Virus record (IMG/VR): IMGVR_UViG_3300045988_014027
Span: 1 to 43,907 of that record
DNA: 43,907 nt
Reading direction: 5' to 3' (one strand)
Source: a virus
Position numbers and translations under genes: made by a program. Shown in pieces: positions 4,340 through 43,907 of the stretch. How positions within the stretch are numbered: position 1 is the first letter of the stretch; each line of letters begins with the position of its first letter. The notes under the pieces were generated by a model that saw only the letters and a program-made list of their open reading frames with translations, did not search any database and was not told the origin of the DNA.

Positions 4340-4756
4340 TTAATTCCTCACTTCTAAATTAATGTATTTTTTATAAAGGGCATCAATGTACCCATTGCCA
4401 CCTAATTTTTTATAACTGGAGTGCATTTTGTGAATCACATCGGAATTGTGAACCGTGGTATATCCACGCTCTAATTCTTTAGAAATGTCACGCTCTAAGC
4501 GTAGATACATGGTGACAAGATGCGCTTCATCATGCACTGCTAGTTTGTCGCTTAATTCGTTGATTTTCTCGTTGTTTGATTCACCGATTTGTTGAATAGT
4601 TTCAACCGAATCATGAATATTGTTCAACTCGCCTTTTAAATCTCCGAATTGTGATTTGCTTAAATTAGCGGACTTGCTAGCCTTCATGCCAAACCACCCA
4701 GTCGCTATTACCCCGATAGTAGGGGCGAGGTGGTCAATCAAATCAGAAATATTCAA
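4340..4756 (-). CDS. Hypothetical protein with an N-terminal transmembrane segment and a coiled coil
   Basis: 138-aa ORF. Hydrophobic APTIGVIATGWFG near the N-terminus. Confidence 0.6.
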   Translation of the reverse strand: MNISDLIDHLAPTIGVIATGWFGMKASKSANLSKSQFGDLKGELNNIHDSVETIQQIGESNNEKINELSDKLAVHDEAHLVTMYLRLERDISKELERGYTTVHNSDVIHKMHSSYKKLGGNGYIDALYKKYINLEVRN

Positions 4757-4791
4757 TGTACTTTACCTCTTTTATTTTTTACCCCCATTTT

Positions 4792-6777
4792 TTAATTATC
4801 TTCAGTTAGATATGTGACTGTACCGGTGTAGATGGCACGGTCTTGCGATTGATTGGTAAGCCTAATCGAACCATCGGGTGCAAGGTGCCAGACAGCCACG
4901 CCCGCATGGTTAGTACCGACATTTTTATTAGCAACTAAATGCACTTGAATAGCTGGTCTGAAACCACTTGGGATAGTATTAGTCATTACCCCATTCTCGT
5001 ATACACCCACGACATAGTCGGAACGGATAAGGCTGGCAGTCACCACTGAGCCTTTTCGAGCAAGCGACATTTTAACACCCCAGCCAATATCAACCTCTTG
5101 TTTAACCAACGCTGGTTCTTGCTTTTCTGGTTTAGGTGTGTACTCAATCCATGTACCGGCGGAATTACTGGTTACTGTCCGTTTAAACATGCGACCAGAA
5201 ACAGTCGTTAATGTTTGGAGGGAACCGAAACCACCTTCCACGACTTCCAAAAAACCACCCTCGCCAATAGCTGGATGGTTCTTATAATTACCGGCTATCG
5301 AATAAAAACCAGTAGTCTTGTAATCGTTTAGATTAGCAACCTTGTTGTCGATGGCAGCACCGTCAGGCTCGGTCAGTTTGTGGTGTTGTATCTGCTTACG
5401 GTTTGAATAGATTAAACCGTTAACGTCCAACGCTCCCATTTCACGGTACTTGCCTATACCAACGCCATCACGTTCGTAGCTCATTACTACTTTATCAGTT
5501 GATACTGTGATAACAAATTCTGTGTACGAGAACTTATCTTCAACACGCCCTAAAACCTCCCAAGAGGTATCGGCTGGATATTTTCCATTAAGATTGGCAT
5601 CAGAACCGTTTAATTCAGAAATATTCTGCCATTCGTTCGTGCTATCTGTCGTGTAAGTATCCGTACCGACCTTCCTTGTTTTAAAGGTCAGCTTGGTTGT
5701 ATTTTTTTGTGTCCCATTAACGGACAAGGGCGCTACTTTTAAGAATCGTTTCAGCGTGATCGTGTCTAGCTTCTCTCCCGTTCGTTTGGCTTCAAAACGT
5801 AGTGTAGGGTTAAAGTAAGCCAATACTGTTATGGTTTGCTCTCGCCAGTCTGACCACAAGCCACGACTATCTTGGACTTTAGCTCTAACTGTCATTTGTT
5901 TGTCAGTAACGGTCGATGGAACTGTAAGCGTGCCATTATTCGACTGTATCGAACTATTCCCGCTTACAATTTCGGCATAGTATCCAGTTATTGAAGACCC
6001 AGCAGCACCTTGACCGCCATTAAAAACGACTTTGATACGTGACAAAGTGCTGACAAAATACGTAGGGCTAGGAATGAGATTTTGTGTCACTGGGTTTGTG
6101 TCCGATAAACTAAAACCAGTGAAACCCGGCTTAAAGAGATTGGTCGGGATATTGACCGTGATTCTTCGAATATCCTTACCGACTTCGACTCCGTTGTTGT
6201 AAGTTACATAAGTTATTGTACCTGTACCGCTAGCCGAGTTAGGGAATTGATTAGCTATCTCAACGGGTGGAATCCATGTGAAACTAGAATCTACATCATC
6301 ACCAGCTATTTTTTTGTCATAACTACCGATAGTCACCCAAATAGAGTGTCTCATCCACGCTTCACGCTTGGTGATGTTGATGATCACTGGTTTAGCGATT
6401 TCAGCCGTCACGTCCGAGCCATAACTAGCACGGGAAATGGTAGTTAAGACAAGAGCTGCATTGTTAATAGGTATTACCTTATTATTGCTCTTATTCTTAA
6501 ACTCTCCACGATAATACATTGTACGAGTACCATCTCCATCATGTCGGATAGTGACCTCTTGGTCAATCAACATAGCGGTCTGATTAGGTTCAACGGTTAG
6601 CGTGCCAGAATTGGCTAAACGCTTTCCACCGTCATAGTCGATGTACGCTTCCCAAGGAACACCAGACACCTTAGTGTCTCCGTTTTCCCAATAGAGTTGT
6701 AAACGCACTTGTGATGTATTGCTATCAATATTCGAGCTAGCTTCATAAGCACGTAGGACTGCTTTTCCTCCAGCCAT
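4792..6777 (-). CDS. Tail fibre / baseplate-associated structural protein (661 aa)
   Basis: Large beta-rich ORF immediately downstream of Tal, in the position of streptococcal phage distal tail or receptor-binding proteins. Confidence 0.6.
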   Translation of the reverse strand: MAGGKAVLRAYEASSNIDSNTSQVRLQLYWENGDTKVSGVPWEAYIDYDGGKRLANSGTLTVEPNQTAMLIDQEVTIRHDGDGTRTMYYRGEFKNKSNNKVIPINNAALVLTTISRASYGSDVTAEIAKPVIINITKREAWMRHSIWVTIGSYDKKIAGDDVDSSFTWIPPVEIANQFPNSASGTGTITYVTYNNGVEVGKDIRRITVNIPTNLFKPGFTGFSLSDTNPVTQNLIPSPTYFVSTLSRIKVVFNGGQGAAGSSITGYYAEIVSGNSSIQSNNGTLTVPSTVTDKQMTVRAKVQDSRGLWSDWREQTITVLAYFNPTLRFEAKRTGEKLDTITLKRFLKVAPLSVNGTQKNTTKLTFKTRKVGTDTYTTDSTNEWQNISELNGSDANLNGKYPADTSWEVLGRVEDKFSYTEFVITVSTDKVVMSYERDGVGIGKYREMGALDVNGLIYSNRKQIQHHKLTEPDGAAIDNKVANLNDYKTTGFYSIAGNYKNHPAIGEGGFLEVVEGGFGSLQTLTTVSGRMFKRTVTSNSAGTWIEYTPKPEKQEPALVKQEVDIGWGVKMSLARKGSVVTASLIRSDYVVGVYENGVMTNTIPSGFRPAIQVHLVANKNVGTNHAGVAVWHLAPDGSIRLTNQSQDRAIYTGTVTYLTEDN

Positions 6778-9700
6778 TAATAACTACCTCCTACCCATTT
6801 GATTACGTTTCGATTTGGGTCAATCAAATCTTGTTCTTCTCGGTAATAACCAATTTGTATTGATTTAGAAAATATACCGTTCTCGATGTGGATAACACCT
6901 TTATCAATGTACATTACTTCAGCACCGGCACTAAACATAGAAATACGCTTATCTGACACCAAAACCGAGTTAGAACCGTCGTTCTTACCAATAATAAGTC
7001 CCTCGTTAGAAGCCTTCATGTAATTGTCAAGGAAACTCCAACGTTCTGAGGTTTCACCCAAATCATTTTGCAATTTGACGATGCGTTGACTAGCTTCAAC
7101 CAATGCTTTTTCAGTCTTGTTCTTATTCTCTTGATTAGTAGACAAGAAATCTTGATAAGCCTTCACCCACTGATTGACCACTGACAAGCTAGCTTTGGCT
7201 TTCAATTCTGCTTGTACGATCGAGTTAAGCTCATTCAGTTTATTGATTTGGTCTTGCGTCAACGCACTGTCTGCCTTGCTATCCAATTGTTTTTTTAAAT
7301 CTTTCGGCGACGCTTGCCACGCTCGGTCAGTAGTACCCTCGTAGCAATCTAGCTCTGTGAAGAACAACAACGATTCACTGCCGTTAGTCGTACCTTTGTT
7401 ATCGATACGGATGAAGCCTTCATCACATTCCCCAGAATTAAACGTTAAGTGCCATTTAACCACCCCACTAGTGGATGGTGAGCCGTTATGCGACTTGAAA
7501 TTAACTACTTTAGTAAAAGTTTTGCTAGTTTCATCAGACCTACGACCAAGGAAATAAATGTCAACACCCTTGACGTTCCCTGTCCCAAATGTCTGCATAT
7601 TGAACGAATAATCAGTGTTGCGTTTGACTGGAAAACGTAGCGTAGACGCTGGGACCGCTGATGATGATGTTTTCAGACAAAACATTGGCTTAGTGCCGTT
7701 GTAGTAAAACGCATGACTAAAAATGGATAGGTTTGCGTTTGCTTGCGGATATTCCCAAAGTCCCCAATTATCCAAATTCTCTGGAAAGGCTGAGTTGGTG
7801 ATTAGGTTTTCACCACCAACCGAAACACTTCCCGTCATATCATTCCAAGTGTAGTCTGCTGGATTGGTACTGTCCGTTCTATCGAAATTAGTACATACAC
7901 CCAAATAGCGTTTGCTACCGTTTTGTGTCAGACTGAAACCAGTCCGACCATCCGAGCTATCAGCGTAAGCAAAGTGGACATAAGGTGTTCTTCCGTCCGC
8001 CCCAGCTTTGCCGGGAATACCATCCCGTCCGTCAGTACCTTTCCACTTAGACCAACGATAATCTTGCGGGTTTCGGCTATCCGTGGCATTGAAATCTTGA
8101 TACATCCCAATGAATGGTTTAGTGGTATCGGTTTGACTAAAACCGCCGCCGGAAACCGTGTCAGCATAGGCTATATGGGTGTACTGTGTTTTACCATCAG
8201 CACCCTTAACGCCGGGTATACCTTGGTCACCTTTTGGCCCTTGCAAACCTTGTGGACCACGTTCACCCGGTAAACCTCTAGGTCCTTGCTCTCCACGGTC
8301 TCCTTTAGCACCGTCATTCCCTTTAGGGCCTTGTTCACCTTTAGCACCTTGAGGTCCTTGCTCACCAATTTTAGACACTGAATAGCCGGTTTCAGTGGTG
8401 TTATCCGTATAACTCCAAACGGTTTTAGTCCATAAGAATTGTCCAGCTGGCACGTTAGGTACTTGACTAACCCAACCAGTTGTTGGTGCTACTGTTCCGG
8501 ATGTTCCTTGCGCATAAGTAATCGTTGTACTACGAATACCGACACCATCTTTACCAGCTATACCATTATTCCCGTCGTTACCATCTCTTGCAACGTAGGT
8601 TTTCTGATACCCCGTTTCAGTGGTGTTGTCAGTATAGGTCCAGACGGTTTTCGTCCAAAACCATTGCCCTTTAACTAATGATGGTGGGTTTTGATACCAC
8701 GCCGTAGGTGGCACGGTTTCAGCCATAGATAGTCCATATAGAACGCTAGTATTTCTAATTCCAATACCGTTCTTGCCCGGTATCCCATCGTTCCCACGGT
8801 CTCCCTTTGGTCCTTGCTCGCCCATCTTAGCAACAGAAAAACCTTGCTCACTCGTACCGTCTGAATAGAACCATGTCGTTCTTGTCCATAGGTATTCACC
8901 GGGGTTAACTGTTGGGATGTCTGGCGACCATGTACCATCTTCAAATACGATGTTTTTAATCCATACTGAATTATCTGTAGTGTAGGTGTTGACACGAATC
9001 TCATATTCACCAGTAGGACGGTTATGCGTGTATCTCGTACCGTTTGCTGTGTTGCTATCAGAAATAATAGCCCATGTACTGAAGCTAGGGTTAACAATCC
9101 AAACCGTAGCATTGTTACTACTTGCGGTCGTATTGTGCTGATTAGTGAAACTGCCGTTAGTTTCAGCGGATAGAATGTAAGTTTTTCCTTGTTCCAATCG
9201 AACACGCTGACCTGTCATAATAAGGTTGTCTATGGTTGAACCAGACGGTTGGTATTTGTTGTTTAAGGCTGCTACCGCACTGCCAGACGGTTTGTTGACA
9301 CCGTCCGTTGATTTCGCATAACGCAAGGTAGTATTCACTAGCCCCACGCCATCCTTACCGGGGAGACCATCATCACCTTTAGAACCGTTCTGTGGAATGT
9401 ATGTTTTTTGGTATCCAGTTTCACTAGATAGGTCCGTATACATCCATTGCGTTTTAGTCCATAGGTACTTACCCTTGACTAAAATAGGTGGATTTGCCGT
9501 CCAGCTAGTAGGCATGGTGGTTTCATTGTCACTCATGCCATAAGTAATAGTAGTAGATTTGAGACCTACACCGTTTTTTCCGGGTAAGCCGTCATTACCT
9601 CTATCGCCTTTATCCCCTTTAGGTCCGGGGTCGCCTTTAGCACCATTCTTACCGTCCGAGACATTTAAAAAAGTAACTTCTTCTGAAGCTACTTCTTTGT

Positions 9701-35680: not shown

Positions 35681-36151
35681 CTAAGTGTGATTGATATACC
35701 CGCTCACCGCCTTCCCGATATCATGGACAACTTCTTCGATGTCATTACGCATTGCCCAAAACAAGCCCAATCTTGCAGCGGCCCTGACGTCTTGGTGATG
35801 GGATTTGTCGAACTTCCAAAGCCCTAGTTTTTTTAATAAGGCATTTGGTATGTCCGATTGATACCCGGCGTTACGCTGAAGGATAGCATCCGGAAACAAG
35901 ACTTGAAACAATGCGATTGTTTCTAAAACACTGTTATCTTTTGCGATGTCGTTATCACGAGCTTCATATTTTTCGATAACAACGACATCACGCTTTATAA
36001 AACGCCCTTCGGTTTCATACCAGTTCCGGATATCCTTTACGCAATACCCAACCACCCAATGCTTGACCAACCTTGCGTTATCTAACAAGACGATTCCGTT
36101 GGTGCTTGTTTCTGCTTTTGCTGAAGATGGATCAATCGCAAGGATTTTCAT
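35681..36151 (-). CDS. RuvC-like Holliday junction resolvase
   Basis: MKILAIDPS (Asp7), VVIEKYE (Glu) and HHQDVRAAARLG (His/Asp) have the spacing of the RuvC fold. Its ATG overlaps the Gp157 stop. Confidence 0.55.
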   Translation of the reverse strand: MKILAIDPSSAKAETSTNGIVLLDNARLVKHWVVGYCVKDIRNWYETEGRFIKRDVVVIEKYEARDNDIAKDNSVLETIALFQVLFPDAILQRNAGYQSDIPNALLKKLGLWKFDKSHHQDVRAAARLGLFWAMRNDIEEVVHDIGKAVSGYINHT

Positions 36152-36621: not shown

Positions 36622-36663
36622 AGTTTTAATGCCTACCCTCCCACCGCTTCAATTATTTATTAA

Positions 36664-36981
36664 TTATTCAAAAAGTTCCATAAGCTCTTTGATGCCATCA
36701 TCCAAGGATTCTTCACGCTCTGTACGTTCGAAGTACGAACCGTCAAGTTTAGTCACGTTGTATTCGGCTTCTACGATAAGCACTTCGCAGCCAAACGCTT
36801 CAGCAAGCTTGTCAAGCTCGTCTTTTTGGTCTTCATACGACTCAATCGGCATATATAGAGCTTTTCGTAAATGTTTGATGAATCCTGCTTCAAATGCTAG
36901 ACTCCCTCTGTCTTTGTATTTTCCAAGAAATGCATCTTTTTTAGCACTGTAAAATACGACTTGTTTGTTATTTTCTTTCAT
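36664..36981 (-). CDS. Hypothetical acidic protein (105 aa)
   Basis: ORF-track entry. Starts 2 nt after the adhesin stop. Confidence 0.55.
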   Translation of the reverse strand: MKENNKQVVFYSAKKDAFLGKYKDRGSLAFEAGFIKHLRKALYMPIESYEDQKDELDKLAEAFGCEVLIVEAEYNVTKLDGSYFERTEREESLDDGIKELMELFE

Positions 36982-36983
36982 GA

Positions 36984-38705
36984 TTATTCTTCCTCACCTT
37001 CGTTGTACTTCTTGAAACTCAATGTCAAACTTGCGATACCTGCTGCAATTACCACAAGCCCAAGAGTTGACATGATGCCTTCTTTTTCGCCAGTGTTTGG
37101 CAAGGCTGCGCGGTATGGTGTATTTGCCACCTCAGACGGCTCAGAATCGTTTTTATAAACGACCTCGGTAATTTCTACCTCTTTTGTCTTAGGCGCATCT
37201 ACGGGCTTGCTAGGCACCTTTTTAGGCTCTGCTGGTTTTTCTGGTGTTGGTTCCTCTGGGATGTGCAACTCTGGCAAATCGAGGATAGGAGCGTCGTTTG
37301 GAATTACTCCACCTTCAAACTCAGGTTTGTAATGTACTGGAGCTTCATTTGGCACTGCGCCACCACTCCATTCTGGTTTATCGTATACTGGTGCATCGTT
37401 TGGAACAGTTCCAATCGGTTCGGTATACTCCGGCAACTCTCTAACCTCTGGGATGCCGGGGATGCCACCTTGGAATTCTGGGATATCAACTTTTGGGGCT
37501 TCACGAGGAATTTCAAACGTTGGTTCTGGCTTGTTTTCACCGCTTGCGTCACCTCGTCCGCCAACAAGTTGAATCTTCATATATGAAACCGCGCCGTCTG
37601 ATTCAGCTTTCAGTTCAATTTTGTTAGTAGGGTTAGTTGAGTCCTTAACAGCATTTACAAGCTTAGTCTTGTAGTACAAGTAGACCATGCGGTCTAGTCT
37701 ATCCATTTTAATTTCAAATCCATGCTCAGATTTTGAGATAGACTTAACTAAGTCCATAGCTGAGCCTTTGTCAATCCAAGGATCTACACTTTCAATGTTC
37801 TCAATTTCAAAGTAGTTATCAACTAACTTTTGATTTTCTGACATTTCATCAACGATAGTCACATAGTTAAGTACCTTCTTTGCATAGTTAACTCGTGCTG
37901 TCCAATTAATCACAGTAGGGTCTTCTTTGTCTTGGAATCCCCATTTAGAAATCAATTCATCTTTACCGATGACCCCCTCATTACCAACATTGACTGTTAC
38001 TACAGTTCCATTGAAATTGATATTTACTGGCTTACCTGCCACAACTTTATCTGTCCAACTTGCATCTAGTTTTAAGTTCATGATCTTATTCAAAGGGTGT
38101 GATTTGAAATAGTCATTGAATACAGTTGTCACCTTGTTAGTGGTAGCATCCGCTGTAGCTTTCCCAACCACTGCTTTATCTGGATTGTGCACATCAAACT
38201 CGTAAGAGGTTTGGAATTTCACTTCTTCGGGCAGGTCAAAAGTAACCTTGTCGCCCTCATTCACTGGCACATTATCCGGAATTTTAATATCTTTATACTC
38301 AACTTCGAATGGGCTATATTTACCAGTGCCGTTAGGGAAAGTAACTTCCACCTCTGGATTGGTAACAGTGATCGTAGTGTCTTCTTTAGTAACTGTGGTA
38401 GGTGCTGCTGGACTTTCAGCAATCGGTTGAGATTCCACTGGTGCTGGTGGAGTAAATACTGGTGTTTCAGCTACTGGTGCCACTGTTTCACTAGGTGTCA
38501 CCGTAATATTCCCAGCATTATCGGCAGTGTAGACATTAGACACGGCTGGTTGTGCATCTGCCACTGGTTGAGTTGCTTCGTCTGCTGATACTGTGCCAGC
38601 ACCGATAAGCAATGCTGTAGCTAGTGCAAGCGTTCCGCACAAGCCATAGGCTTTGCTTTTTGTGAATCCAGTTTTTGCGATTGTTTGAGTGTTGAAAGAT
38701 TTCAT
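36984..38705 (-). CDS. LPXTG cell-wall-anchored surface adhesin, MSCRAMM / collagen-binding-domain-like
   Basis: ATG at 38705 with AAGGAG RBS. Signal peptide ending ...GAGTVSADE. Cna-like A-region patterns (GDKVTFDLPEEV, TTVFNDYF, INWTARVNY, GGRGDASGE). Pro-rich repeats VPNDAPVYDKPEWSGG, AVPNEAPVHYKPEFEGG, VIPNDAPILDLPE. LPNTG (37089-37103) followed by a hydrophobic segment and a charged tail. Confidence 0.85.
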   Translation of the reverse strand: MKSFNTQTIAKTGFTKSKAYGLCGTLALATALLIGAGTVSADEATQPVADAQPAVSNVYTADNAGNITVTPSETVAPVAETPVFTPPAPVESQPIAESPAAPTTVTKEDTTITVTNPEVEVTFPNGTGKYSPFEVEYKDIKIPDNVPVNEGDKVTFDLPEEVKFQTSYEFDVHNPDKAVVGKATADATTNKVTTVFNDYFKSHPLNKIMNLKLDASWTDKVVAGKPVNINFNGTVVTVNVGNEGVIGKDELISKWGFQDKEDPTVINWTARVNYAKKVLNYVTIVDEMSENQKLVDNYFEIENIESVDPWIDKGSAMDLVKSISKSEHGFEIKMDRLDRMVYLYYKTKLVNAVKDSTNPTNKIELKAESDGAVSYMKIQLVGGRGDASGENKPEPTFEIPREAPKVDIPEFQGGIPGIPEVRELPEYTEPIGTVPNDAPVYDKPEWSGGAVPNEAPVHYKPEFEGGVIPNDAPILDLPELHIPEEPTPEKPAEPKKVPSKPVDAPKTKEVEITEVVYKNDSEPSEVANTPYRAALPNTGEKEGIMSTLGLVVIAAGIASLTLSFKKYNEGEEE

Positions 38706-38920
38706 GGTATAATCTCCTTGTAAATGTTTTTTTCTTGCACAGGCCCTTACCTGTGCTTTTTTTAGTGCTTCAATCCGCACCCATAGCCCACCGTTTCATG
38801 TTTTTCAATATTTTTTAGAAAGGTATGTGTGAATATGTGTGGGTAAAGTTTATATTTTTTGGGGAAAGGTATAAGTTACACTCCACGGTGAGCCGTGGCT
38901 ACGGATTGAAGAATGTGATC

Positions 38921-39076
38921 TTAACGGTTTCCGTATTTTGCTAAAAGCTCTTGTTCACGTTTTTTGCGTGCTTCATATTTGCGTTCATTTTCCTCGTATG
39001 GTGTCCATACTGGTTCGAAGAAATATTCTGGTTCTTGTTTTTCTTTTACAAATAGCCATTTAAGTAGTTTTTTCAT
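38921..39076 (-). CDS. Small hypothetical protein (51 aa)
   Basis: Hand-translated as MKKLLKWLFVKEKQEPEYFFEPVWTPYEENERKYEARKKREQELLAKYGNR. AAAGGAA upstream. Confidence 0.35.
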   Translation of the reverse strand: MKKLLKWLFVKEKQEPEYFFEPVWTPYEENERKYEARKKREQELLAKYGNR

Positions 39077-39245
39077 TTTTAATTTCCTTTCTATTCCCTA
39101 ACCGCACTAGAGAGCTAGCGAGGACCGTGTTTTTAATTTCATATATATTTGAGGAGACAATTATGAATATCAAATCGTTGTAGTTTTCGGTAGGTATTGC
39201 TTTTATATCTCCTCACTAGCTCACTGCTACGGCTAGGGTATTGTG

Positions 39246-39527
39246 CTAGGCAATCTCTTGCCAGTTATTGTTAAACCAATCTCTTACGGCGTCCCGTGGG
39301 TATCTGATTTGACTCCCTCGCCCTTTGTCGATTTTTGGGAAACCGTCAAGGTTGGTTATCCGCAAGAATTCGGTATAGTTGCCGATTCCCAACATTGACT
39401 GGCACTGCTTGGCAGTCAGAATCAGTGGGAGTGTTTGGTCTATGTCAAACGCTTTTGTTTTATCTGCTATAACAGTGGTCAGCATACTGTCAAATCGGTC
39501 AGCTAATGGTTTGAATGGGTCTGTCAT
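39246..39527 (-). CDS. Excisionase-like / MerR-type HTH DNA-binding protein
   Basis: LTAKQCQSMLGIGNYTEFLRI...IRYPRDAVRDWF has the Xis/HTH_17 pattern. Confidence 0.55.
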   Translation of the reverse strand: MTDPFKPLADRFDSMLTTVIADKTKAFDIDQTLPLILTAKQCQSMLGIGNYTEFLRITNLDGFPKIDKGRGSQIRYPRDAVRDWFNNNWQEIA

Positions 39528-41009: not shown

Positions 41010-41336
41010 ATGATTATCATTTCACGAAAAGCTAGAAAATTATTAAAATCATTGCTTGATATTCGAAATTCCCAGGAATCTCCTCGCATTAAACCTGAAC
41101 AGTATGAAAAACTGATAGATGAACAAGGTGAACCGCTCGGCGAATTGATTTACCACAAGTTAGTGGTTCAAGACATCACCCATGACATCGCCGTTACTGA
41201 CGAGGGGATTTATTTTTATCAAGCTTACAAAGAACATAATAGATATCTTTGGTTGACTTCGTTTTGGTTTCCACTAGCCGTTGCTTTCGTGACGACTGCT
41301 ATCACACTAGCTGTCAATTTTTTATTTTTTAAATAA
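41010..41336 (+). CDS. Hypothetical protein with a C-terminal transmembrane anchor, encoded opposite to the early operon
   Basis: 108-aa ORF. C-terminus LWLTSFWFPLAVAFVTTAITLAVNFLFFK. Has its own promoter-like and RBS signals. Confidence 0.65.
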   Translation: MIIISRKARKLLKSLLDIRNSQESPRIKPEQYEKLIDEQGEPLGELIYHKLVVQDITHDIAVTDEGIYFYQAYKEHNRYLWLTSFWFPLAVAFVTTAITLAVNFLFFK

Positions 41337-41522: not shown

Positions 41523-41726
41523 TTAGGCTTCGACACGTTCGCTGAACAGGTATTCTAATTCGTATTCTGGGAAGAATGCCCGTTTGATGGCTACTGTTTC
41601 ACCAAAACTGAAATCTGTAACACCGTTAATCTTGCTACGAACCGTGCGATAATCAACTTCTAGCAAATCGGCAATGTCTACTAATGTAATGCCTTTGCTC
41701 TTACGAATTTCTTCGATGTTTTTCAT
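41523..41726 (-). CDS. Cro-like XRE-family HTH regulator
   Basis: 67 aa. HTH ITLVDIADLLEVDYRTVRSKING. Divergent from the repressor gene. Strong GGAGG RBS. Confidence 0.8.
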   Translation of the reverse strand: MKNIEEIRKSKGITLVDIADLLEVDYRTVRSKINGVTDFSFGETVAIKRAFFPEYELEYLFSERVEA

Positions 41727-41878
41727 TTGCTTCCTCCTTCCTTAAGCTTGATTTAAGTATATACTAATTTTCGTACACTGTCAACACAAAAGTACGATTT
41801 TTTTTACTTTTTTTATTTACCTATACAATTTTCTGTGCTACTATATATGTAGAAAGAAAAAAATGTGGGGTACAAAAT
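41727..41878. promoter_or_regulatory. Genetic switch region with divergent promoters and TACGA-type operator half-sites
   Basis: Minus strand: TTGACA (41784-41779), 17 nt, TATACT (41761-41756), reading toward cro. Half-sites TTTTCGTAC (41768-41776) and GTACGATTTT (41792-41801). Plus-strand TTTACC-17-TACTAT lies upstream of the repressor gene. Confidence 0.6.
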
Positions 41879-42232: not shown

Positions 42233-42688
42233 ATGAAACTTTTGAAAAAATACAAATGGTACATCTTAACAATTATAGTTTTGTTCTGTCTTGGCTTAAT
42301 GTTTGTGCCACGGTCTGGGAAGGAACCAAAGGAAACAAAACAGTCTAAGACTGTCAAAGTAACAAAACACTCCAAAAAGTCAAGCAAGCATAGTTCTTCT
42401 TCGACTTCAAAAGTTTCTAGTAGTTCGAGTTCAGAGCAACCGCAACAACCACAAGAACAAACGCAAACTGAAGCTTCCCAACCTCAGCAAGAAAAACCTA
42501 TTGACGGTGTAGGCCCTACACAATCACAAGTAGACCAAGCAACTGAACAATACGGCTATACACCAGGATATGGCGGAGTCCCTTCTGATTCTCCCGAAGT
42601 AGCAAGAGAACAAGCAGACCAACAAGCACGTCAAAACTGGCATGACAGTCAAGTTGAGTGGGCTAAACAACAAGGACTTATGGATTAA
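42233..42688 (+). CDS. Signal-anchored, Ser/Gln/Pro-rich extracytoplasmic protein (151 aa); candidate superinfection-exclusion factor
   Basis: N-terminal KKYKWYILTIIVLFCLGLMFV transmembrane segment. Low-complexity SSSSTSKVSSSSSSEQPQQPQEQ linker. Lies between the repressor and int, where TP-J34-type phages carry ltp. Confidence 0.6.
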   Translation: MKLLKKYKWYILTIIVLFCLGLMFVPRSGKEPKETKQSKTVKVTKHSKKSSKHSSSSTSKVSSSSSSEQPQQPQEQTQTEASQPQQEKPIDGVGPTQSQVDQATEQYGYTPGYGGVPSDSPEVAREQADQQARQNWHDSQVEWAKQQGLMD

Positions 42689-42804: not shown

Positions 42805-43875
42805 ATGGCATCATACAGAAAACGCCCAAACGGGTGGGAATACCGCATAAATTACTACGATTCTACTGGCAAACGAAAGCCAAAGTCAAAGGGTGGTTTT
42901 AGGACGAAATCTGAAGCTATTAAGGCTGCTGCTGAAATGGAGTTAAAGCTACAAGATACCGTCAATGTTGATGAAAACATTACATTCCTTGCCTATTTTA
43001 AGCAATGGTGCGAGGTCTACAAACGCCCGAATGTGTCAGACTTAACATTCAATCTGTATGTCGTTACTCAAAAACAGATAGCGTCATTTTTCGGTGACAA
43101 GAAACTAAAAGATATAACTGCCACCGAGTATCAGCGTGTACTGAATCAATACGCTGAGACACACGCTCACACGACTGTCAAACGGTTCCATACTCAAATC
43201 AAGGCTTGTGTTGAAATGGCTGTCCATGAAGGCTATATCAAGCGTAATTTCTGCAAGTTTGCCAAAATCAACGCTAAAGTTAAAAACCGTGATATTCAAT
43301 CAAAATTCCTAGAAGTTGAGGAATACGAGCGATTGATCTATGAGACCAGAAAACACCCAGATAATACCGCTTATGCCGTGCTCTATATGATTGCTAAGAC
43401 TGGTATGCGATTTGCTGAATGTCTCGGTTTGACCGTGGATGATATCGATTATGAGAACGGCACGCTGTCAGTCAATAAAACATGGGATTATAAAAATAAC
43501 ACTGGTTTCATGCCTACAAAAACAAAAAGCAGTATCCGACAGATACCACTTGATGATGAATTTTTGGATTTTGTTAAACAACTAACACCGCAACCAGATG
43601 GCAGATTACTGCCAAGAATGTTTAACAATGCCGTCAATAGAACACTACGCAAAATAGTTGGGCGTGAGGTGCGTGTCCACTCGTTAAGACACACTTATGC
43701 CAGTTATTTAATCTCACACGATATTGACTTAATATCAGTATCGCAAGTTTTGGGGCATGAAAATCTAAACATCACACTGGAAGTGTACGCCCACCAACTC
43801 CAAGAGCAGAAATCACGAAACCACGAAAAGATTAAGCAAATGTGGACAGAATGTGGACAAAAAGCTTTGAAGTAG
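42805..43875 (+). CDS. int: Tyrosine recombinase / phage integrase
   Basis: 356 aa. Catalytic signature R (GMRFAE), HSLRHTYAS, LGHENLNITLEVYAH. The last 23 nt lie inside the terminal repeat. Confidence 0.9.
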   Translation: MASYRKRPNGWEYRINYYDSTGKRKPKSKGGFRTKSEAIKAAAEMELKLQDTVNVDENITFLAYFKQWCEVYKRPNVSDLTFNLYVVTQKQIASFFGDKKLKDITATEYQRVLNQYAETHAHTTVKRFHTQIKACVEMAVHEGYIKRNFCKFAKINAKVKNRDIQSKFLEVEEYERLIYETRKHPDNTAYAVLYMIAKTGMRFAECLGLTVDDIDYENGTLSVNKTWDYKNNTGFMPTKTKSSIRQIPLDDEFLDFVKQLTPQPDGRLLPRMFNNAVNRTLRKIVGREVRVHSLRHTYASYLISHDIDLISVSQVLGHENLNITLEVYAHQLQEQKSRNHEKIKQMWTECGQKALK

Positions 43876-43907
43876 CGATTTTACGGGCAATTACATAGTC
43901 TATCATA
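43853..43907. repeat. Right copy of the exact 55-nt terminal direct repeat
   Basis: Identical to nt 1-55. The repeat runs exactly to both window edges. Confidence 0.95.

Follow-up and report, generated by a model that had tools for sequence, protein, structure and literature searches.

A predicted MSCRAMM/Cna-type surface protein in the early operon of a temperate streptococcal siphophage

The IMG/VR virus record IMGVR_UViG_3300045988_014027 (43,907 nucleotides (nt); this whole stretch is called the window below) carries on its minus strand a gene for a 573-amino-acid (aa) protein with the layout of a sortase-anchored adhesin. Bases 1-56 of the window are identical to bases 43852-43907, and these identical 56-base ends mean that the assembly is circular and represents a complete phage genome, ~43.85 kb in size. 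Its backbone shares 82-89% identity with phages of Streptococcus salivarius and Streptococcus thermophilus, and the window is a complete temperate siphophage of the S. salivarius/thermophilus group. The 573-aa protein is 100% identical to the database proteins P0001-P0004, and a PHROGs search with it returned no family. The gene has a G+C content of 0.42-0.43 versus 0.385-0.40 in its neighbours. It was divided into the following segments, where dN/dS is the ratio of non-synonymous to synonymous substitution rates, pLDDT the predicted local distance difference test score, and TM the template-modelling score.

36984..38705, minus strand: adhesin-type gene encoding the 573-aa LPXTG surface protein; stop codon at 36984-36986 (open reading frame (ORF) list, Pfam and NCBIfam matches)
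38577..38705, minus strand: signal peptide, aa 1-43 (by inspection; TIGR03726 sub-threshold; alignment of homologues)
38382..38576, minus strand: Pro/Thr/Ala-rich N-terminal segment, aa 44-108, of variable length through indels among homologues; dN/dS 0.21, low pLDDT
37971..38381, minus strand: first immunoglobulin G (IgG)-like subdomain (Big_8, MSCRAMM N2-like), aa 109-245, containing TTVFNDYF (PF17961, SdrE profile match, Foldseek)
37563..37970, minus strand: second IgG-like subdomain (Collagen_bind, Cna N2-like), aa 246-381 (PF05737; Foldseek TM 0.60-0.63 to RspB and Cna)
37536..37562, minus strand: GG[RK]GDASGE segment, candidate latch, aa 382-390 (last beta-strand in AlphaFold2, E278-286 of the A-domain model)
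37266..37505, minus strand: four Pro-rich SIALI-17 repeats (PExxGGxxPxxAPxxxK) of 17 aa each, aa ~401-480 (NCBIfam NF043031)
37104..37265, minus strand: Pro/Lys/Glu-rich spacer, aa 481-534, the least constrained segment (dN/dS 0.51)
36987..37103, minus strand: sorting signal, comprising LPNTG (37089-37103), a hydrophobic helix and the tail KKYNEGEEE (TIGR01167)

For the A-region, the first-pass annotation had proposed Cna/collagen-binding-like sequence patterns from the letters alone. Pfam searches supported this with two domains: Big_8 (PF17961) matched aa 139-223 (E 2e-13, over the curated cut-off), and Collagen_bind (PF05737) matched aa 250-356 (E 2.4e-10, 41.2 bits vs a cut-off of 27.5). 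A full-length AlphaFold2 model made with 27 near-identical homologues had a pLDDT of 36 and was not used. The A-domain was modelled over aa 105-400 from a 70-sequence alignment, resulting in a pLDDT of 74; this alignment included a second clade, gathered by a homologue search begun from a distant copy in 'Campylobacter phage CJLB-5'. When the A-domain model was compared with the PDB using Foldseek, the 44 best matches were A-domains from Gram-positive adhesins anchored in the wall, and surface adhesins made up nearly all of the top 50. The matched proteins included ClfA, RspB, Bbp, SdrE, SdrG, Cna, Cnm, ClfB, SdrC, SdrD, Ace and UafA (E 2e-14 to 1e-10), known as microbial surface components that recognize adhesive matrix molecules (MSCRAMMs). 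The model superposed on the N2N3 or N1N2 domains of ClfA, SdrE, SdrG, Cna, RspB, Cnm and Ace over ~310-330 aligned columns, with TM-scores of 0.5-0.63; RspB and Cna were at the top (0.63), and Cnm reached 0.57. Among predicted viral structures, the sole strong match was a metagenomic siphovirus protein named 'Clumping factor'. The earlier reading had allowed that homology searches might assign the A-region to a phage structural fold. No virion or structural fold appeared among the strong matches in the PDB or in the predicted viral structures, and the strong PDB matches were MSCRAMM A-domains.

Single-sequence and shallow-profile searches of the PDB sequences gave no significant match. Only the more diverse family profile reached a known structure, the N2 domain of Staphylococcus aureus SdrE (E 3e-6). 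In this alignment, KVTTVFNDYFKSHP of the window stood opposite QITYTFTDYVDKYE, the MSCRAMM signature motif; the TTVFNDYF of the window was aligned with the TYTFTDYVD-type signature, and the motif is present in 95 of 96 homologues. Because the Pfam pair, the fold matches and the SdrE motif profile match agree, the 573-aa protein is, by its predicted structure, an MSCRAMM-type adhesin with the domain pair of Cna-like proteins.

The N-terminus has the features of a secreted Gram-positive protein. The signal peptide consists of a K-rich n-region with the YSIRK-like FTKSKAYG, a hydrophobic core LCGTLALATALLIGAG and a VSA|DE cleavage site, and it is conserved in 27 aligned homologues. It was called by inspection rather than by a dedicated predictor, and the streptococcal YSIRK-like model TIGR03726 scored 17.9 bits, under its cut-off of 20.85. 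A lipoprotein reading of the GLCG in this segment was rejected, YGLCG falling outside the lipobox pattern [LVI][ASTVI][GAS]C. The ATG start codon (38705) is preceded at a distance of 8 nt by the ribosome-binding site AAGGAG (38714-38719). One database entry uses a 598-aa reading from GTG 38780. We consider this start spurious and the ATG real, because the GTG lies within a base-paired non-coding leader that shows single-base indels between phages.

The A-domain ends in the GG[RK]GDASGE segment, a predicted terminal beta-strand in which the G, A and G residues are conserved in the family alignment. The RGD tripeptide pointed out earlier is indeed at 37548-37556 (residues 384-386), yet it is not a conserved feature: KGD occurs in 50 of the 96 homologues, RGD in 44 and RGG in 1. 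We therefore rejected RGD as a conserved integrin motif; as it is not conserved and lies within the predicted last beta-strand of the A-domain, an integrin-binding role receives no support. The Pro-rich repeats downstream number four, not three as first counted. They are recognized by NF043031 (SIALI-17) with 64.2 bits vs a cut-off of 30 in four stretches; the model spans the repeats, not the A-domain. Their copy number differs among homologues, and they probably form a wall-spanning stalk. Cna_B, which the first-pass annotation had listed among the domains to look for, gave no Pfam match in the protein at E up to 1. Tandem Repeats Finder detected no DNA-level tandem array in the gene, and slipped-strand phase variation is therefore unlikely.

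The C-terminal sorting signal, also part of the initial description, consists of LPNTG, ~22 hydrophobic residues and KK. TIGR01167 recognized it just above threshold (16.2 bits vs a cut-off of 15.9), whereas the Pfam model Gram_pos_anchor (PF00746) remained below its own (14.4 vs 20). LPxTG is kept in 95 of 97 homologues, x being N, H, S, V, K, L or A, and the other two have LPNAG. Most alleles from S. salivarius phages have the acidic run YNEGEEE after KK (36987-37016), those from phages of S. mitis and S. parasanguinis have the tail KKEN or KKKEN, and more distant homologues KKEN or KKK.

Relatives of the adhesin are encoded by 297 stretches in IMG/VR. A protein search returned at least 8000 matches, many of them on contigs of 38-47 kb, and in reference genomes (one per species) all 11 matches were inside prophage early regions. 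The closest counterparts are in YMC-2011, Javan534, Javan535, Javan536, Javan539 and SA-TP2. These proteins belong to the same family, have the same architecture with 64-79% aa identity over the full length, and are encoded in the same slot after a 51-aa ORF and the leader, only 2-4 nt separating them from the early gene that follows. They differ in the N-terminal spacer, the repeat number, the x of LPxTG (S, N or V) and the downstream replication modules, which are mosaic. The annotations are diverse. Ssal_phage00024 of YMC-2011 (CP002889 / NC_018285) is a 'lpxtg cell wall surface protein, collagen binding domain protein', the SA-TP2 homologue an 'LPXTG cell wall anchor domain-containing protein', that of Javan536 a 'hypothetical protein', that of Javan311 (S. 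mitis) a 'putative peptidoglycan bound protein', and that of Javan371 (S. parasanguinis) 'WapA'. The label 'sialidase' in Javan534, Javan535 (gene at 4744-6465) and Javan539 is wrong; the protein has no sialidase domain, and the name probably came from the SIALI-17 repeats. The label 'putative outer membrane protein' in other database entries for this gene is also wrong.

Essentially all of the 97 surveyed loci have an uninterrupted reading frame, and in 57 of them the following gene on the same strand begins after a gap of ≤5 nt. The identity of this gene varies: it can be the 105-aa gene found in the window, a 437-aa protein, a 760-aa primase-helicase or Gam. The 105-aa gene lies within 5 nt downstream in ~40 loci, with a 2-nt gap in 36, the window included, and a homologue of it occurs in about half of the 97. 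In Javan311 the adhesin gene is located between two helicase genes, and in Javan371 it follows the replication-initiation genes. Selection was estimated by the Nei-Gojobori method over 600 pairs, for which dS exceeds 1 and is near saturation, making the values approximate. The dN/dS was 0.067 for the first IgG-like subdomain, 0.082 for the second, 0.05 for the candidate latch segment and 0.51 for the spacer before LPXTG. The A-domain values of 0.07-0.08 imply that the binding module is kept by selection. About a hundred phage genomes carry the adhesin gene intact and under strong purifying selection.

Several more distant relatives were observed alongside these. MW057932, the 'Campylobacter phage CJLB-5', encodes a 476-aa homologue with an LPKTG end (4815-6245) between an excisionase and a replication protein. 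The layout of this genome is that of a Gram-positive temperate phage, and its proteins have their closest relatives in Streptococcus; its Campylobacter host label looks wrong. An LPQTG homologue (8001-9533) was found on a 275-kb metagenome contig and an LPKTG homologue (8001-9641) on a 233-kb one. Their same-strand neighbours are thymidylate synthase, DHFR/UDG, glutaredoxin, RtcB, D5 primase, NAD synthase and CHAP, a context that looks like that of a jumbo phage. In the S. sanguinis protein P0220 (279 aa), the C-terminal part of the adhesin, with the last portion of the second subdomain, the repeats and LPKTG, is joined to a YopX-like phage domain; this protein lacks a signal peptide and is probably left over from a recombination event. 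Listeria phage matches at 28% identity were on unannotated 'UNVERIFIED_ORG' contigs.

Among known systems, the protein was compared with two groups of MSCRAMMs. With the collagen-hug MSCRAMMs Cna (S. aureus), RspB (Erysipelothrix), Cnm (S. mutans) and Ace (Enterococcus faecalis) it has the Big_8 and Collagen_bind pair and the LPXTG anchor in common. Its best structural superpositions were with RspB and Cna. It differs from these four proteins by a sequence identity of 14-17%, by a SIALI-17 stalk in place of Cna_B, and by being phage- rather than chromosome-encoded. SdrE, SdrG, ClfA and Bbp, which act by dock-lock-latch, gave the lowest Foldseek E-values. They resemble the window protein in the profile of the first subdomain, with its TYTFTDYVD-type motif, and in a Gly-rich strand at the C-terminal end of the A-domain, the candidate place of the latch. 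Unlike them, the window protein has Collagen_bind rather than SdrG_C_C as its second subdomain, and no Ser-Asp repeat region.

Phage-borne surface proteins have been described before. PblA and PblB of the S. mitis phage SM1 are phage-encoded in an oral streptococcus and mediate adhesion to host components, but they are tail-related virion proteins which bind the cell surface after lysis, and have no signal peptide or LPXTG. SasX is reportedly linked to colonisation and, to our knowledge, is not embedded in an early or replication operon. It is unrelated to the window protein, has no MSCRAMM A-domain and belongs to another kind of phage; SasX/SesI of phiSPbeta-like staphylococcal prophages is likewise a prophage-borne LPXTG surface protein (PMC7047976). 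The LPXTG gene of phiD12-like group A prophages in Streptococcus agalactiae is a probable adhesin on genomic grounds alone (PMC6546898). It resembles the present gene, by description, in being borne on a streptococcal prophage and carrying an LPXTG motif. The MSCRAMM gene ecbA lies inside predicted Enterococcus faecium prophages. The adhesin gene is thus not new: it has been annotated in GenBank since the YMC-2011 genome, and prophage-borne LPXTG proteins are an established idea. In the literature covered, which did not extend to the original YMC-2011 paper, we found no study that analyses this adhesin family, where it sits in the early operon, how prevalent it is or why dairy phages are without it, and papers citing YMC-2011 leave the gene unmentioned.

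The position of the gene in the phage genome was then considered with the following neighbours.

36664..36981, minus strand: 105-aa early gene, phrog_2486, beginning 2 nt past the adhesin stop codon
38706..38920, minus strand: 5' leader of 215 nt with no coding signal (fold z-score, covariation over 76 sequences, 281 phage records)
38921-39076, minus strand: 51-aa ORF, directly upstream of the leader
39246-39527, minus strand: helix-turn-helix (HTH)/Xis-like gene, upstream neighbour of the adhesin gene
41523-41726, minus strand: cro-like gene, matching phrog_3
41756..41784, minus strand: early promoter candidate TTGACA-17-TATACT upstream of the cro-like gene (consensus scan, 11/12 matches)

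All lytic genes of the window are on the minus strand, in the order cro-like gene, anti-repressors, HTH/Xis-like gene, 51-aa ORF, adhesin, 105-aa gene, Gam-like gene, helicase and Sak4-like gene, after which the remaining replication genes, morphogenesis and lysis follow. At the right end, the plus strand holds a cI-like HTH gene, the gene of a membrane protein of 151 aa, and the integrase gene. The ORF positions agree with the placement given in the first-pass annotation, on the early strand between the Xis-like gene and the replication module, 2 nt from the next gene, and away from the usual moron slot. This slot, next to the integrase, holds a different gene. There, between repressor and integrase, the plus-strand gene at 42233-42688 encodes the 151-aa protein (phrog_30975), which begins with a membrane helix and has a tail rich in Ser and Gln. 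In phages of the TP-J34 type, this classical cargo slot is taken by the gene of the exclusion lipoprotein Ltp. Ltp-type lipoproteins of S. thermophilus phages have a lipobox Cys and a gene between repressor and integrase, and the window adhesin has neither. Another plus-strand ORF of 108 aa (41010-41336, phrog_12206), with a C-terminal membrane helix, lies between the cro and anti-repressor genes. YMC-2011 and SA-TP2 also annotate oppositely oriented genes near this position, likened here by position alone.

The consensus scan found a single strong promoter-like site on the minus strand upstream of the adhesin gene, that at 41756-41784, and no terminator-like site on this strand between the early promoter candidate and base 36000. 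On the adhesin strand, neither the scan nor inspection by eye revealed a sigma-70-like promoter in 38706-39250. A related phage of S. thermophilus, 2972, relies for its early transcription on one promoter located upstream of cro (PMC13575424). With the gap to the next gene at ≤5 nt in 57 loci, there is no room for a terminator after the adhesin gene. As in a moron, the gene is present or absent between adjacent genes, since in CHPC1282, a lytic S. thermophilus phage without it, the leader abuts the Gam-like gene. A promoter and a terminator of its own were not found by the consensus-based scan. Because these signals are lacking, the adhesin gene looks, by position and signals, like an ordinary early-operon gene rather than a self-contained moron.

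The leader forms a structured RNA. A long-range stem pairs 38909-38879 with 38800-38770 (25 pairs), and hairpin 2 comprises 7 pairs at 38756-38737; the fold is more stable than shuffled controls at z = -5.2. Stem and hairpin are kept in 76 distinct homologous leaders, with 99.2% of the cells paired. Twelve pairs show compensatory changes, and at three consecutive pairs 38 sequences have CG/CG/CG and 37-38 have UA/GC/UA. The covariation score was 0.305 vs ≤0.078 with the partners slid. Approximately 15% of the paired cells are G-U, and since G-U pairs exist only on the early-mRNA strand, the structure is an RNA feature of the early transcript. Rfam, run on the whole window and permissively on the leader, identified no family, with two weak matches far under the gathering scores. 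The leader occurs in 281 phage records. Most of these are S. thermophilus phages that lack the adhesin, and in them it precedes replication genes; TP-J34 annotates it only as 'stem_loop'. In the window, the adhesin gene takes the first coding position after it. The leader may be where RNase III processes the transcript, or it may stabilise the mRNA. On the opposite strand (38685-38763, plus), an extended -10 promoter-like site, TTGAGT-17-TGGTATAAT, arises from the complement of the spacer between ribosome-binding site and ATG. After the TGGTATAAT site, a hairpin followed by T7 resembles a terminator, and both the -10 and the T-run are conserved across leaders. A ~40-nt RNA antisense to the 5' untranslated region of the adhesin would be a speculative product of this site.

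The gene was absent from all S. thermophilus phages in a collection of 50,697 records. CHPC1282 is 89% identical to the window on the replication-module side and 87% at the cro gene and early promoter, and it shows where the gene is missing.

36643..38679, minus strand: segment missing from CHPC1282, namely the adhesin gene minus its first 8-9 codons and the 105-aa gene (blastn break points)

At CHPC1282 7040-7110, which corresponds to window 38679-38720, the leader, the ribosome-binding site, the ATG and ~9 homologous codons are retained just before the Gam-like gene. These codons (MKTFKITTI, MKSFNTQTI in the window) look like a remnant of the adhesin gene start, and the comparison suggests that a deletion in the dairy lineage is simpler than an insertion in the oral lineage. 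Such a deletion fits with the decay of sortase A and LPXTG proteins in S. thermophilus, which are intact in S. salivarius (PMC3231929). Intact SrtA and LPNTG substrates have been reported for the latter species (PMC3231929).

With the above results in hand, we propose, with a probability of roughly 0.7, that the gene is a conserved cargo of oral-streptococcal temperate siphophages, encoding a sortase-anchored MSCRAMM/Cna-type protein that alters the adhesion of cells in which the early operon is active. The gene would be transcribed from the promoter upstream of cro together with the replication genes, and its product would be exported and covalently joined to peptidoglycan by host sortase A. 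The Pro-rich stalk would span the wall and hold the A-domain away from it. The A-domain could then bind a protein or peptide ligand between its subdomains, by dock-lock-latch or by a 'hug'; candidate ligands are host matrix, salivary pellicle or a partner bacterium. The adhesive surface would be changed in infected cells, in induced cells and in carriers with a leaky or episomal state. An adhesin of this kind may be useful in the mouth and gut and not in milk, and this uselessness in milk would explain its absence from S. thermophilus phages.

Several points weigh against this proposal. The latch mechanism is drawn from fold similarity at only 11-17% identity, and the A-domain model is of moderate confidence, with a pLDDT below 50 at aa 217-244. 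An acidic stretch (NEGEEE) follows KK in the tail, an uncommon feature in a sorting signal. Saturation at dS limits the precision of the dN/dS values. The promoter scan was a simple consensus search, which a weak or non-sigma-70 promoter in the leader may escape. Recombination history, and not selection, could be the reason why S. thermophilus phages lack the gene.

The alternative that fares best is classical lysogenic conversion, as envisaged in the first-pass annotation. Here, the gene would be expressed alone in the repressed prophage, from a leader promoter or by read-through, and would equip the lysogen with one more adhesin for colonisation, in the way SasX reportedly does for S. aureus. 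The phages are temperate and have an integrase and a repressor, the gene shows strong purifying selection and a high prevalence in mouth and gut commensals, and it is absent from dairy phages, all of which would suit such a role. SasX on a prophage (PMC7047976) and the phiD12-like LPXTG gene (PMC6546898) are precedents. YMC-2011 is reported to persist as a multicopy episome; in that case its replication genes, and the adhesin gene along with them, might be active in carrier cells. The region in front of the gene is harder to reconcile with it. No sigma-70-like promoter was seen there, and what is conserved in the leader is paired arms of RNA rather than promoter hexamers. A promoter in the leader would also switch on the replication genes of the lysogen, because no terminator follows the adhesin gene, and the classical moron slot beside the integrase is filled by a different gene. 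The lack of an own promoter and terminator in the scan favours expression tied to the early promoter or to derepression. We regard expression of the gene on its own in the repressed prophage as a possible but doubtful explanation.

It is rather unlikely, though conceivable, that the protein functions in the lytic cycle. Made early, it would mask the surface, for superinfection exclusion or to avoid adsorption to debris, or it would tether the doomed cell to a host-rich biofilm. The presence of the gene in early or replication operons of several unrelated backbones (the window, Javan311, Javan371 and the 233-275 kb contigs) and its tight coupling to the next early gene are in line with this. 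However, wall polysaccharide is the usual receptor of these streptococcal phages, and the known ligands of MSCRAMM A-domains are proteins of the host rather than polysaccharide of the bacterial wall. S. thermophilus phages have the same superinfection problem and do without the gene. Septal sortase anchoring would need ongoing wall synthesis, for which the lytic cycle would leave little time. Ltp, the superinfection-exclusion lipoprotein of the S. thermophilus phage group, provides a surface-exposed precedent (PMC3952083). In a more specific form, to which we likewise give little credence, the adhesin would be a lytic-cycle protein serving the phage, encoded by the first gene of a replication-module transcript that is released from the early mRNA through processing at the double-stranded leader. 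It would be displayed only where the early promoter has fired, fixing the cell in the biofilm before burst or excluding competitors, and would represent a phage-specific MSCRAMM-like lineage found both in small temperate phages and in phage-like genomes of 230-275 kb from Gram-positives of the mouth and gut. A benefit to the lysogen by conversion and a benefit to the phage by lytic-cycle display, exclusion or tethering are not mutually exclusive.

Ig-like domains are common on phage structural proteins, which would speak for a virion or host-recognition protein whose IgG-like domains decorate the particle or bind a receptor, but the gene is ~6 kb from the morphogenesis genes and within the early module, the Sec signal peptide and LPXTG sorting signal direct the product to the host wall, no PHROG structural family matched and no structural fold was among the strong matches, which makes this reading very improbable. 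Equally hard to credit is a decaying passenger from a host chromosome with no current function: the G+C content slightly above that of the neighbours could hint at it, yet the frame is intact almost throughout, dN/dS is 0.07-0.08 at dS >1, and all close relatives were found in phage rather than chromosomal contexts.

These findings bear on a group of organisms for which attachment is central, since S. salivarius and related species belong to the earliest and most numerous colonisers of the human mouth and upper gut, where their success depends on surface adhesins. The practical value of the adhesin gene is moderate: it is a candidate determinant of the adhesion of probiotic S. salivarius, and a marker separating oral from dairy phages. 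Its placement in the early operon raises the question of whether the adhesin is displayed by the quiet lysogen or only after the phage wakes. The gene is present in about 300 viral contigs and in prophages of at least four streptococcal species. If the proposed reading is true, temperate phages would be a vehicle by which colonisation traits are exchanged among commensal streptococci.

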